NCBI GenBank assembly: GCA_001029775.1
Contig: CP011215.1
Span: 123,187 to 187,186, forward strand
Direction of reading: 5' to 3'
Source of the DNA: Candidatus Campbellbacteria bacterium GW2011_OD1_34_28
GTDB taxonomy: Bacteria > Patescibacteriota > Minisyncoccia > Phycocordibacterales > UBA12079
DNA length: 64,000 bases
In this document: one piece after another, positions 5,440 to 59,158 of the stretch
Numbering within the stretch: position 1 is the first letter of the stretch
Layout: each line of letters begins with the position of its first letter
Notes under the pieces: generated by a model
What the model saw: the letters and a program-made list of their open reading frames with translations, nothing else
Databases searched by the model: none
What the model was told of the DNA's origin: nothing
Position numbers and translations under genes: made by a program

Positions 5440-5600
5440 TGCGGAGAGGGAGGGATTCGGTCACAAGTCACTAAGTCTTTTGTTCGCCCTTCGCTATCGC
5501 TACGGGCTCCAAAAGCCAAAGTGTTCGCGACCCCGACTCAGAAAGTTGAAAAATTTAATAAATTTTTCCTTTCTTCCGTCTTTCGAATCCCTCCATCGCA
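5440..5600. repeat. tRNA-Ser 3'-end copies bracketing cassette A
   Basis: GCGGAGAGGGAGGGATTCG (identical to 6579-6597) + GTCACAAGTCACTAAGTCTTTTGTTCG...CGACCCCGACTC + inverted TTCGAATCCCTCC. Confidence 0.85.
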
Positions 5601-5615
5601 GTTAGCGACACAAAA

Positions 5616-5654
5616 GAAAAACACCGCTTGGGCGGTGTTTTTCTTTTGGTCGTG
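5616..5654. repeat. Hairpin/direct repeat, copy 2
   Basis: AAAACACCGCTTGGGCGGTGTTTTTCTTTTGGTCGTG matches 2870-2908. Confidence 0.75.
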
Positions 5655-5888
5655 CGGTGGCGATGTCCGGAAGTTTGAACCATTAAAACGCTTAAATATC
5701 AGGAATCTTGACTTGATTATACGAAAATTGAGACTAATTTACAAAGAAAAACCAGAATATTTCGAGGTGCCAAGTTTTGCAGTTAAAGTTTATTGATGTA
5801 TGCAGTATCCTATACTGTTTTGATAAGGATAATGTATATATCTATTTATCGCTATAATCCGCTACAATCGGCTATATAGTTAACATTA

Positions 5889-6479
5889 TTAATCCCGCTC
5901 AAAATCACTAGAAACTTTAACAGGATATTTGAAATCATCTTTTTCTGTCTCGATAACAGTATGAAAGCCAACTTCCCCGTCTTCTTTAACAAACTGCCAG
6001 GAGCCTTCCGGATCGTTTTTGAAACCAGCCGCATCTACAATATAAATAAAACCCTTTTCGACACTAACAAATTTACCATCGGGTAGAGTGTGAATTTCTA
6101 ATTCAAGAGGACTATCTTCACGAATAAAATATGGGTACCCTAGATTAACATTAATATTAGAATAAATTGACCGCATTATTGCAATTGCTGATTTATTCGC
6201 CGCAAAAATTTTCTTGTGATGAGATTTTAATTTGTCATCCTGTATTTCATGAATTGAGCCATGGAGTAAGAAGCCGTGATTTTGGCAAAGATAATCCAGA
6301 AAATGTTCTGTAGTAATACCTTCTTCTTTCAGCTCCTTTAAATTATCAAGTGAAATTTTTCTGACGCCCTCTGTTTGCGTTTCAAAATACTTTTTATAGA
6401 AGCCCTCCATTAATTTTTGCACCTCGATATTTTCGGGAGTCTGTGTCGGCTGTTCTATCTTTGGTTTTATATTTTCCAT
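5889..6479 (-). CDS. Hypothetical protein
   Basis: 196-aa ORF with protein-like composition (FLLHGS motif). Confidence 0.75.
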   Translation of the reverse strand: MENIKPKIEQPTQTPENIEVQKLMEGFYKKYFETQTEGVRKISLDNLKELKEEGITTEHFLDYLCQNHGFLLHGSIHEIQDDKLKSHHKKIFAANKSAIAIMRSIYSNINVNLGYPYFIREDSPLELEIHTLPDGKFVSVEKGFIYIVDAAGFKNDPEGSWQFVKEDGEVGFHTVIETEKDDFKYPVKVSSDFERD

Positions 6480-6687: not shown

Positions 6688-7067
6688 TCGAAGGATTTTA
6701 GTCACGAGTTACTAATCTTTTTGTTCGTTCTTCGCTACGCTACAAACTCCAAAAATATAAGTACTCTCGACCCCGACTCGACTGTCTCGCTTTGCTCGAC
6801 ATGTCTCCGTCTCTTGATTTCAGACAGAAAGCAAAGAAATTTGCTTTCCTTTCTGCTAAATATTTTTTATAAAAGATAAAAGATATTTAGCAGAACTTAA
6901 ATCAAGCCTTGCCACGTTAGCAGTGTGGTGGTTTCACCCACCTATTTCCTATTCGCCTATCGGCTCATAACGGAAATTTCTTCGCTTCGCTCAGAATCGG
7001 ATTAAAAACAAAGCAGTTTGTTTTTAGTCCTCTCACCCACCCCTGCCTGCCGGCAGGCAGGTCTCCA
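6688..7067 (-). pseudogene. Fragmented second copy of tRNA-Ser interrupted by repeat insertions
   Basis: Pieces TCGAAGGAT (~6688), CCTTGCCACGTTAGCAGTGTGGTGGTTTCA (6907-6936), CCTCTCACCCACC (~7029-7041) and TCTCCA (7062-7067) are collinear with 6604-6667. Confidence 0.7.
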
Positions 7068-11535: not shown

Positions 11536-11608
11536 GCGCACGTAGCTCAGTTGGTAGAGCGCCGAGCTTATACCTCGGTGGTCCCAGGTTCGAGTCCTGG
11601 CGTGCGCA
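11536..11608 (+). tRNA. tRNA-Ile(TAT), CCA not encoded
   Basis: GCGCACG/CGTGCGC acceptor, anticodon arm CCGAG-CT TAT AC-CTCGG, GGTTCGAGTCC T-arm, A73. Confidence 0.92.
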
Positions 11609-11646
11609 CAAAATTAAAAATACTTTTGCTAAAAACCAAAAGTATT

Positions 11647-16711: not shown

Positions 16712-17262
16712 CAATTTAAAAACACTGCCTTTAAAGGCAGTGTTTTTAAATTGTGGAAGTGAGCAAGGCAACTGCTTGCCTTGCGTGCGAGAATCGAAAG
16801 TCGGAACATGTTGAGCGAAGTGAAACAGTGAGACGGGGTCGCGAGCACTTAGGCTTTTGGAGTTCGCAGCGAAGCGGAGAACGAACAAAAGACTTAGTGA
16901 CTTGTGACCGATTCTCGCCTACTCTCTTAAGTCCCAAAGCACCTAGCTTTGGGGCTTTTGATTTTGTAAGAAGTGGCGAGAATCGAAACGAGCGAAGTAT
17001 GGAGGAGCGAAACGACGAACACGAGCCTGCCTGCCGGCAGGCAGGCGAGCGGGGATAAAAAACGTTTAAGTTTTTTATCTGTTTTTTGCGAAGCAAAAAA
17101 TTTTCTTAATTGAGTGAAACGAAATAGAAAATAGGAGGAACAGAGTTCTTAGTGAAGACGAGTTCCGAGCTTGTCGAGGGACGAAGTCTGAACTTAGAAC
17201 TGGAGACCGATTCTCGCCCAAAAGACTTAGTGACTTGTGGCCGATACAGACCACCTCCGCCA
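16704..17262. repeat. Mosaic of inverted and direct tmRNA 3'-end copies with cassettes A and B
   Basis: GCGAGAATCGAA at ~16787 and ~16976; CGATTCTCGCC at ~16909 and ~17208; cassette interiors match 5459-5580 and 58238-58860. Confidence 0.85.
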
Positions 17263-57386: not shown

Positions 57387-58076
57387 TTATTTGATCAGAG
57401 ATTCCTTGATCTGCAAAAGTTTAGACAGTTTATATGGGCAGTCATCAATTATGTATCCTAGAGGACTCATTCCACACGGCAAGGTAATCAAATCTCCATC
57501 CTGAAAATCTGAAACATCTTCCCTCTTTTCAATCCCCCATGAAATTCTTTTTCCGTTTCGATAAAATGGATATTTGGAGATATCAAATTGTGAAGCATCA
57601 AAGCTTATAACATCAATTGCGGATTTGAAAAGAATGTCCCAATCCATGTTTCCGCAACAATATACACCACGAACGACTGGAAAACTTGAAAATATAGCTT
57701 CCCACGCGTCCTCGAAATTGAATCCTGCCTGCCCCAAAGCTGGTTCGTCCAAAAAAAGAATAATTTCTTTGGCGTTTAAGCCATCCAAAATGGTTGAGAT
57801 GTGACGATAAATTATTTCCACCGCCTCATCTTCACTGCGCCCAATCATGATCAATGTTGCCGGCCCGATGCACTGCACTTTTACAGTAGAAAAATTATGA
57901 CGCTTGAACTCAGCCAAACAACTCATTTTTCCCGGCCGATTAATGTAATTCATAAAATCGTCTCCTAACCTAGGAAGCTCTGGGAAAAAGGGGATATCGT
58001 GGAACAAACTGTATGACACGGCCATACCAACGTCAATAAATGGCAAAGAACCAATCTGAGTGATGATCTTACGCAT
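57387..58076 (-). CDS. Short cobalamin-independent methionine synthase (MetE-like) core protein
   Basis: IGSLPF, PELP, KVQCIGPAT, FLDEPAL, YCCG, ISFDA, LPCG. Confidence 0.7.
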   Translation of the reverse strand: MRKIITQIGSLPFIDVGMAVSYSLFHDIPFFPELPRLGDDFMNYINRPGKMSCLAEFKRHNFSTVKVQCIGPATLIMIGRSEDEAVEIIYRHISTILDGLNAKEIILFLDEPALGQAGFNFEDAWEAIFSSFPVVRGVYCCGNMDWDILFKSAIDVISFDASQFDISKYPFYRNGKRISWGIEKREDVSDFQDGDLITLPCGMSPLGYIIDDCPYKLSKLLQIKESLIK

Positions 58077-58211
58077 TGTTGAAATCTCCTCGTTTTATTG
58101 TCAAAAAATATTATTGTACAAACAAACTGAATGTTGTGTTTGATAATAAAAGATACTACAAAACAAACTTGGTGTCAAAAACAAAAAAATAATTTGGTAA
58201 ATATTTTTCTT

Positions 58212-58929
58212 TGTGCGGATAGGACAGAAGAGAATCGGCGCCAGTTCTAAATATTTTGTTCGTCACTCGACAAGCTCGTGACTTCAAAATATTAAGAACT
58301 CGCTGCCTCGCTCGCCTGCCTGCCGGCAGGCAGGCTCGTGTTCGTCGGGCAAAGCCCTCCTCCATACTTCACTCGTTTCGATTCTCCCTATTCGCTACAA
58401 AAACCAAAGACCCAAAAGCTGCCGCTTTTGGGTCTAGGTTTTTGTGCGGATAGAATAGATGAGAATCGGTCACGAATCACTAAGTCTTTTGTTCACCCTT
58501 CACTTCGTTACGGGTTCCAAAAGTCTAAGTGTTCTCGACCCCGGCTCGCCTTCTCGCTTCGCTCGATATGGCTCCGCCTTTCGATTCTCCACGAAAAGCA
58601 AGCAGTTGCTTTTCTCTATCCGAACAGCACAAAGTGAAAACCACCCTATTCGGGTGGTTCACTTTGGCTGTGCGGATAGGATAGATGAGAATCGGTCTCC
58701 AGTTCTAAGTAAAAATTTCGTTTTCGCTTCGCTTCAACTCATTTTTACTAAGAACTCGCGACCCCGCTCGCTCAGATTTTTTCTCCACCCTGCCTCTTTT
58801 CTGAAAGAAAAGCAACGACACGGTAGGCAGGTTCGTTACGAAAAAATATACTTCGCTCGTTTCGATTCTCCCTATTCGCTACAAAAATATATTACGAAAA
58901 AGCTAGTCGCTTTTTCTCCATTATTTTTG
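58212..58929. repeat. Three-unit mosaic of tRNA-Gly 3'-end copies with cassettes B, A and B'
   Basis: TGTGCGGATAG..GAGAATCG at ~58212, ~58443 and ~58669; TTCGATTCTCC at ~58377, ~58580 and ~58861. Confidence 0.9.
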
Positions 58930-59000
58930 TGCGGATAGGGAGAATCGAACTCCCGACTCATCCTTGGCAAGGACGTATTTTACCACTAAACCATATCCGC
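58930..59000 (-). tRNA. tRNA-Gly(GCC), CCA not encoded
   Basis: GCGGATA acceptor, anticodon loop TT-GCC-AA, GGGAGTTCGATTCTCCC T-arm. Confidence 0.95.
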
Positions 59001-59158
59001 GATTATTCAGTTTTTAGTCATTAGTTTTTAGTGTTTAGAGATAGTAAATAAAAAAACAAAAACTAACATCAACCAGTATAAGATATTTTGGGCTTTTTTT
59101 CAAATTTAAAAACCCCCGGATATGCTTTACGCATACAACCGAAGGGTTTGTTTGTGCC

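Follow-up and report, generated by a model that had tools for sequence, protein, structure and literature searches.

Hairpin units with inverted and direct copies of the local tRNA tail behind tRNA genes in one Patescibacteria order: probably mobile DNA, with a GIY-YIG nuclease as candidate driver

Introduction

Behind the tRNA-Gly(GCC) gene of Candidatus Campbellbacteria bacterium GW2011_OD1_34_28, the 3' end of the tRNA is repeated several times in both orientations, and the question is what kind of sequence carries such copies. The gene lies in a window of 64,000 nucleotides, the whole stretch of DNA analysed here, which corresponds to positions 123187-187186 of the single 752,630-bp contig. 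The genome, labelled G000, has a GC content of 34.8% and is 99.5% complete. ARAGORN gave 41 calls, and 40 tRNA/tmRNA loci were kept after one doubtful intron call was removed.

The array behind tRNA-Gly(GCC)

A preliminary description of the window reported three units behind tRNA-Gly(GCC) (59000-58929, minus strand) with six extra copies of the tRNA tail, and exactly these were found, three of them antisense and three sense. In the direction of the tRNA, each unit consists of a leading hairpin, an antisense tail copy that runs to T54, a core, and a sense tail copy that starts at C56/G57. Both junctions fall within the T-loop as proposed, the sense copy at 56/57 and the antisense copy at 54. 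The supposed spacer after the tRNA is actually the hairpin of the unit and is distinct from the hairpin behind the sense copy. The latter had been described behind each unit; it is present, but weak after the last one. The features of the array are as follows.

58929-59000, minus strand: tRNA-Gly(GCC), the intact anchor gene
58883-58928, minus strand: unit 1 leading hairpin, unit-derived, pairing back onto the tRNA tail; a near-identical hairpin stands at the same locus in G006
58861-58882, minus strand: unit 1 antisense tRNA-Gly tail copy, positions 73 to 54, with one bulged A
58694-58860, minus strand: unit 1 core, type B (167 nt), two stems, with a composite mini-palindrome inserted near 58788-58831
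58670-58693, minus strand: unit 1 sense tail copy, which begins at G57; six bases are inserted in its T-stem strand
58580-58669, minus strand: unit 2 leading hairpin and antisense tail copy (58580-58630), broken by a mini-palindrome
58468-58579, minus strand: unit 2 core, type A (112 nt)
58444-58467, minus strand: unit 2 sense tail copy, with six inserted bases; this copy is undamaged in the run X7 strain
58377-58443, minus strand: unit 3 leading hairpin (58399-58443) and antisense tail copy (58377-58398)
58237-58376, minus strand: unit 3 core, type B (140 nt)
58213-58236, minus strand: unit 3 sense tail copy, likewise with six inserted bases

The acceptor 10-mer GTGCGGATAG occurs four times in the window, all at the Gly locus (in the tRNA and in the three sense copies), against 0.02 occurrences expected, and none of 100 shuffles reached four. 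All three sense copies have their six additional bases in the T-stem strand, and in unit 2 this insertion faces the mini-palindrome in the antisense arm. The fold z of the unit 2 region (58444-58630) was -5.1 as DNA and -4.6 as RNA. Positions 58238-58305 in the unit 3 core are identical to the core at tRNA-Arg(GCG), and the 20-base mini-palindrome at 58314-58333 is not present in related copies. A 159-aa ORF overlapping the array had no Pfam match, and the units are non-coding. Scanning the window at Rfam gathering scores returned only three tRNAs and the tmRNA. Logan contigs of the probable source runs, which are not independent of the assembly, cover 57600-58261 and 58374-58816 with 0 differences. 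In a run from a different study, 3 differences were counted over 58364-58468 and 2 over 58442-58680. Most junctions of the array are reproduced by contigs, none of which spans it entirely.

A common fold of the cores

The two cassette types, A and B, can be distinguished as first described, but both are variants of one three-way-junction fold. In this fold, the two tRNA-derived arms pair as the closing stem; a GAA linker leads to stem P1 and a GG linker to stem P2, which carries a T:T mismatch in the units of this genome. Among 60 distinct foreign rows, 94.2% of cells were paired and two-sided changes were present in 27 of 31 pairs, in an alignment fitted to the model. G-U pairs were few, about 37 of roughly 1,380 paired cells by manual tally. 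Leading hairpin, P1 and P2 are shuffled among units. At tRNA-Arg(GCG) and tRNA-Arg(TCT) (G000 C1 270836-271026 and 298246-298439), the tail is the same and hairpin and core are nearly identical, which suggests whole-unit conversion across the two loci.

A third cassette, C, consists of three consecutive hairpins. Its insertion points are the D-loop GG in partial tRNA copies and the GG linker in T-loop units. Of its eight copies, six interrupt the D-loop of a partial tRNA copy, a variant stands at tRNA-Lys(CTT), and one is nested in the GG linker of a tmRNA unit, as is also the case in G008. The sites are 6938-7030 and 17053-17138 in the window, and G000 C1 105080, 275606, 396778, 510825, 523069 and 653759.

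Units elsewhere in the window and in the genome

A covariance model was trained on 11 type-A units, three of them from this window. At E<=5e-7, it matched seven units in the window (58462-58587, 58688-58868, 58231-58384, 16791-16915, 17090-17214, 5453-5589 and 6694-6820), and the A and B sites reported at tmRNA and tRNA-Ser were found again among them. The features outside the Gly locus are listed below.

16713-17260, plus strand: tmRNA-linked type A unit, type B unit in which cassette C of the D-loop type is nested (17053-17138), and a third unit that is partial
5440-5660, minus strand: type A unit with tRNA-Ser tail copies; a 196-aa ORF lies between the unit and tRNA-Ser(GCT)
6694-7060, minus strand: partial upstream tRNA-Ser(GCT) copy with cassette C in its D-loop (6938-7030), then a type A core with degenerate flanks

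The cassette reported at 6701-6810 does have a type A core, but it follows the partial upstream tRNA-Ser copy and lacks intact flanks. The 196-aa ORF (5889-6479, minus strand) had no Pfam match, stands between the tRNA-Ser antisense arm and the orphan unit 5440-5660, and is possibly captured cargo.

In the whole genome, the motif screen gave 19 complete units and 2 composite calls, and the model gave 23 matches at E<=1e-4. For 20 of the 23, a tRNA or tmRNA precedes the match on the same strand by no more than 800 nt; these represent 16 loci, and the zone of 800 nt behind such genes makes up 3.75% of the genome. The remaining three trail displaced or partial tRNA copies (Ser twice, Gln once). 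The motif screen adds Gly(TCC) to the 16 loci, so that units stand at 17 or more of the 40 tRNA/tmRNA loci. The unit at G000 C1 714165-714331 follows a half copy of tRNA-Gln(CTG), 17.7 kb from the intact gene, and marks the end of an island.

Local copying of tRNA tails

The flanks of the units had been described as copied locally and the interior as common, and foreign genomes agreed with this. At 32 foreign loci, 124 of 160 bases of the antisense arm agree with the T-stem strand of the local tRNA (mean of 5000 permutations 86, maximum 103). In this and the other counts, the copies are related to one another and are not independent events. At variant positions 57-64 of 50 tRNA-proximal units, the antisense arm follows the local tRNA in 88 of 102 cases and the consensus in 3, in a set pre-filtered for a match of at least 8/12, which inflates the agreement with the local tRNA. 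At orthologous Gly(GCC) loci, the arms track lineage-specific T-stem changes (G001, G004, G008 and G012). The arm in G003 tracks a tRNA change at position 55 (read by eye, outside the filtered set); in G006, the proximal unit fits the present tRNA and the distal unit retains an older-looking tail. The locally copied stretch comprises tRNA positions 54-73.

Distribution and turnover among relatives

The model found units in 49 of 60 relatives, namely 18/18 in the family and 31/42 in other families of the order. In the rest of the phylum, 2 of 120 genomes were positive, both with the full design, in a survey that used stricter filters and a type-A model built from one genome. Therefore, an occurrence all over Patescibacteria is unsupported, and units are assigned to this order and scattered others only. 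A pattern scan of GTDB contigs gave at least 120 matches; among the 80 that were read, a same-strand tRNA was located within 400 nt at 29/44 loci labelled as CPR by title versus 3/36 others. Pattern search also revealed true unit loci in G055 and G039. The copy number reaches about 30 units in 0.8 Mb. There was no unit match in 50,697 phage records, and IMG/VR gave 6 pattern matches, none beside a tRNA, with only one weak model match.

The orthologous Gly(GCC) locus contains 0 to 3 units among 10 genomes: three in G000, two in G001, G003, G004 and G006, one in G008, G009 and G012, and none in G007 and G002, where the locus is within 100 nt of the contig end in G002. In G011, a GIY-YIG module stands in place of a unit. 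Run X7 comes from a strain whose neighbouring ORF is about 94% identical; there, only the middle Gly unit is present, its sense copy is undamaged, and unit 1 is missing (25 letters support one of the joints). These differences support the earlier idea of non-autonomous elements, the units behaving as modules that come and go. The units are mobile or at minimum rapidly turned over, occur well above chance behind tRNA genes, and are widespread in one order of Patescibacteria. They break assemblies at tRNA genes and can mislead the annotation of island boundaries and tRNA fragments. Some relatives (run X7 at window positions 58953-59000; L211 and L212) have an extra upstream partial tRNA-Gly copy, positions 1-48, which is not in this genome.

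Comparison with the RtT repeats of E. coli

RtT has reportedly been listed among small RNAs since 1991, with no known mode of action. In E. coli K-12, RF00391 matches 16 times, at Tyr, Pro, Lys, Ser and Arg tRNAs, and the RtT loci that were read have a local antisense arm (imperfect at Lys), a common core and a local sense tail. RtT (RF00391; the 178-bp repeats of tyrT; rttR) shares with the units the order of tRNA, trailer, local antisense arm, hairpin-rich core and local sense 3' end, as well as the tandem arrangement. GNA mini-hairpins in the core and a sense copy starting in the T-loop are also common to both. In contrast, the RtT sense copy starts from 58/59 and its antisense arm runs to 59, while these positions are 56/57 and 54 in the CPR units, whose arms are longer and set in a unit-derived hairpin. 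Cassette C, the D-loop counterpart, and the GIY-YIG modules were observed on the CPR side.

RF00391 gave 0 matches at E<=1 in the whole genome (E. coli was positive) and none at E<=10 on 58100-59100, and the type-A model had no match at E<=1 at the E. coli tyrT locus. The units are RtT-like in layout and are not members of RF00391: the design is the same, and the cores are unrelated by covariance model in both directions. A resemblance in head sequence between RtT and cassette C at tRNA-Lys(CTT), seen by eye, was unsupported by the RF00391 genome search. The preliminary description had offered the arrangement as an undescribed system and had held that a known family with the same architecture would speak against this. 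Because RtT shares the layout, such a family exists as far as design is concerned, with unmatched sequences; since E. coli RtT shows the layout, the design was already known in sequence, whether or not it was described. The literature search gave no account of the CPR units and none that connects GIY-YIG proteins with tRNA-linked repeats; the local flanks of RtT may already be described in Bosl and Kersten 1991 or Rudd 1999. RtT gain or loss among strains is mentioned for Erwinia in PMC7542023. The units form a second, sequence-unrelated family with the RtT layout, abundant in streamlined genomes and polymorphic among strains, which makes the origin of tRNA-linked repeats testable.

DNA or RNA

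The cGNAg triloops on the sense and antisense strands numbered 20 and 0 in 19 own units, leaving out two composite Ala calls (shuffle mean 2.8, maximum 9). In 59 foreign units, the numbers were 53 and 1 (shuffle mean 9.5, maximum 17), after duplicates and one overlapping antisense match were removed from 64. No cUUCGg loop was present in the 19 own and 59 foreign units. A 4.9-kb rRNA-region control displayed the opposite balance, with 22 GNRA and 5 cGNAg loops. GNRA loops in foreign units were raised with stems of at least 2 (46 vs. 18.7), but not with stems of at least 3 (8 vs. 4.7, maximum 12). GNA mini-hairpins are far more stable as DNA than as RNA, as stated in PMC13037366. The preliminary description had considered that each unit might form a tRNA-like minihelix with the cassette as a small RNA, whereas the loop signature suggests DNA rather than RNA. 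Because the DNA-type cGNAg loops are enriched only on the tRNA-sense strand, the unit fold would appear to act as ssDNA. RtT repeats likewise contain cGNAg loops, and RtT is known as RNA.

The units are likely transcribed together with the tRNA. In the predicted precursor fold, the antisense arm captures tRNA positions 61-65 with a probability near 1 and outcompetes the tRNA's own T-stem; this competition may explain the frequent damage to the arms. The units could be RtT-like RNA maintained by the host, co-transcribed and released by processing, with an antisense arm that tunes tRNA maturation and gene conversion that keeps the arms matched. Their place directly behind the tRNA in the same orientation, the predicted capture, the strong covariation and the reported freeing of RtT from tRNA operon transcripts (PMC4986893 and 10.1101/2024.07.17.603846) are consistent with such a role. 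However, close relatives differ in the presence, number and type of units, the loops are of DNA type with UUCG absent, G-U pairs have the low share given above, and arms are frequently interrupted or damaged, so that a host RNA is unlikely. The units are quite probably mobile DNA and not conserved host RNA.

Candidate enzymes

No candidate enzyme gene had been seen in the window and none was identified there; a GIY-YIG candidate is encoded elsewhere in the genome. The inventory comprises two short GIY-YIG genes, three RAYT-like genes and one tyrosine recombinase, and RVT_1 had no match in this 99.5% complete genome. One GIY-YIG gene (G000 C1:396946-397194) encodes 82 aa, lies between inverted repeats and interrupts the T-loop of a second tRNA-Thr(TGT) copy at 53/54 (L007, G000 C1:396300-397600). 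The same duplicated copy has cassette C in its D-loop, and a long 7-base tandem repeat precedes the intact tRNA. The nearest solved structures of this clade are UPF0213 and SLX1, and the protein had no NCBIfam match.

Fifty loci of the clade were read, a subset of about 155 matches, and at 21 of them a tRNA, tmRNA or rRNA/RNase P gene was located within about 500 nt (Rfam; query gene included). Two further loci in RNase P RNA were recognized by eye. At tRNA 5' ends, the start of the tRNA is duplicated, and the gene separates this duplicate from the intact tRNA. Three loci at tRNA-Gly 3' ends (L179, L181 and L302) show tRNA, GIY-YIG gene, antisense arm and sense copy in this order, with an arm that differs along with the local tail in 3/3; L181 is the ortholog of the Gly(GCC) array locus. 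In these modules, only 7-8 bases are inverted and 10-11 direct, and the T-loop is not reached. Many other loci of the clade are intergenic with inverted-repeat ends, and gene-less end motifs are common in the genome (21 + 21 sites). Among the loci read, none had a GIY-YIG gene within an A or B core, and the inverted repeats of the modules have no evident sequence in common with the unit cores. One module with tRNA-Gly-type ends was observed at an intergenic site without tRNA (L170, in G055). In a non-CPR genome, a GIY-YIG insertion in 23S rRNA-like sequence (L011, by eye) has inverted-repeat ends closely resembling those of the tRNA-Thr element.

The preliminary description had looked to protein families that co-occur with the units, and this check did not single out an enzyme. 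Among 42 one-per-family genomes, the co-occurrence of GIY-YIG genes and units gave p values from 0.004 to 0.17, depending on a cut-off picked after seeing the data, and RAYT presence did equally well (23/31 vs. 4/11, p=0.03). Gene counts of GIY-YIG and unit counts had no significant correlation. Genome co-occurrence is weak and unspecific and does not single out GIY-YIG. G003 (100% complete, 24 units) and G004 (91%, 19 units) are without a detected gene of the clade, and G058 has nine such genes and zero units. The sole match to the clade profile in E. coli K-12, at 3.30 Mb, is distant from the RtT loci. The Slx1-like 82-aa GIY-YIG nuclease is the best driver candidate, with roughly even chances, and would act in trans. 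To our knowledge, this nuclease class is not known as a bacterial transposase. A candidate enzyme for tRNA-linked repeats can now be named; if it drives the units, this would be a transposition route with that nuclease class and with DNA-shape targeting, of possible use in ssDNA engineering.

The three RAYT-like genes (G000 C1 near 1.6, 344.6 and 379.2 kb) each have their own palindromic repeats. The units could be BIME-like products of such a RAYT (Y1 HUH) transposase if it took tRNA arms for REP hairpins; BIME-like products had also been considered before. In addition to the three genes and the association of RAYT presence with units, the cores fit as imperfect hairpins with a conserved T:T mismatch. 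However, the palindromes flanking the three genes are unrelated to the unit repeats, 0/20 RAYT loci taken from a larger list had any Rfam structural RNA nearby, and no Y1 gene was detected in 9/50 unit-bearing genomes. Without positional support, a RAYT origin is improbable.

Comparison with other mobile elements

The second short GIY-YIG gene (L008, G000 C1:367600-369100) has SRM-like hairpins on its flanks, with 44 such motif sites in the genome, and is probably an Ssn-type system; the SRM consensus pattern gave 0 matches in the whole genome. Ssn nucleases with NTS/SRM repeats (cd10448) are similar to the tRNA-linked element in having a single-domain GIY-YIG gene flanked by hairpin repeats. 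They cleave one strand of ssDNA beside a hairpin and are proposed to be a domesticated mobile element, and the word tRNA does not occur in that paper (PMC11893778). This cleavage is a biochemical precedent and was counted for the GIY-YIG driver. In contrast, the tRNA-linked protein is shorter and UPF0213/Slx1-like, and is 36% identical over 72 aa to the L008 protein.

REP/BIME/REPIN elements with RAYT are likewise non-autonomous imperfect hairpins in mosaic tandem arrays, probably at the ssDNA level. Unlike them, the CPR unit loci are without RAYT, are strictly targeted to tRNAs, and have the target copied into the element in both orientations. Non-intron GIY-YIG insertions in CPR rRNA genes are related in that the same protein clade was seen here inside 16S, 23S and RNase P genes. 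They are described as not introns and unlike homing, and the source does not mention tRNA and, in the part consulted, reports no non-coding derivatives (PMC11270868).

Integrative islands that target tRNA genes also lend themselves to comparison. In the class with T-loop crossover, the gene is restored, a 3' fragment is displaced and tandem arrays form, and a displaced 3' fragment starting in the T-loop together with tandem arrays is what such elements typically leave behind. The units, which show a displaced direct copy of the tRNA 3' end, could accordingly be scars or decoy attachment sites of tRNA-targeting integrases, or minimal islands integrated at the T-loop. The 196-aa ORF inside one unit at tRNA-Ser and the unit at the far end of the 17.7-kb insertion at tRNA-Gln are further points in favour of this origin. 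However, the units are 150-260 bp long and have no integrase, integration leaves the locally matched inverted arm inside the element unexplained, and near-identical cores stand at unrelated tRNA species. The single tyrosine recombinase gene of the genome is not at a unit, and the phage and IMG/VR records gave the negative results reported above. We therefore consider integrase scars as doubtful as RAYT products.

Proposed mechanism

The reading we prefer is that the units are non-autonomous, selfish ssDNA hairpin modules that target tRNA genes and are driven by a GIY-YIG nuclease, to which we assign a probability of about 0.5. Insertion of a module would spare the tRNA gene by duplicating its end. 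The tRNA-sense strand would be exposed as ssDNA and fold, and the folded strand would receive a nick near C56/R57 of the T-loop. Fold-back synthesis across the tail to T54, giving the antisense arm, could then be primed by a hairpin attached behind the tRNA. The core would be copied from another unit, and synthesis would rejoin the template at R57 and yield the direct tail copy. Host recombination would afterwards convert, shuffle and delete units.

A palindrome of tail, hairpin and antisense arm is what fold-back synthesis would give, and replication slippage without an enzyme (tRNA hairpins causing fold-back and template switching) could also be the origin, as could reverse transcription of precursor tRNAs. 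However, the T-loop junction positions are constant over many genomes, a conserved core is inserted every time, RVT_1 was not found, and the copies read through position 58, which leaves this origin with slightly poorer prospects than the RAYT and integrase ones. An assembly artefact, conceivable in a repeat-rich region that no single contig spans in the runs compared, can practically be set aside, given that the copies differ among themselves, contigs of another study cross unit junctions and 49/60 relatives share the design.

The preferred mechanism of GIY-YIG-driven modules can tentatively be extended, and we regard the extension as possible rather than probable. There may be one class of mobile ssDNA elements with minimal GIY-YIG nucleases, whose target is the folded shape of stable-RNA genes (T-loop, D-loop, rRNA stems and RNase P stems) and not a fixed sequence, and which write the local target into themselves in inverted orientation with every insertion. 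Such a class would comprise the CPR units, the D-loop cassettes and the GIY-YIG mini-elements, and the RtT repeats of E. coli might be a relic of this process and not primarily a regulatory RNA.

Mini-palindromes and a rare tRNA

A 20-base mini-palindrome is inserted into unit stems in the window (58314-58335, 17030-17047 and 7042-7061) and genome-wide. It has 59 motif matches over both strands, 21 of them within 1 kb of tRNAs, and its presence differs among strains. The window also encodes a tRNA-Ile with a TAT anticodon (11536-11609), which is uncommon in bacteria; G055 has this tRNA too, with a unit behind it.
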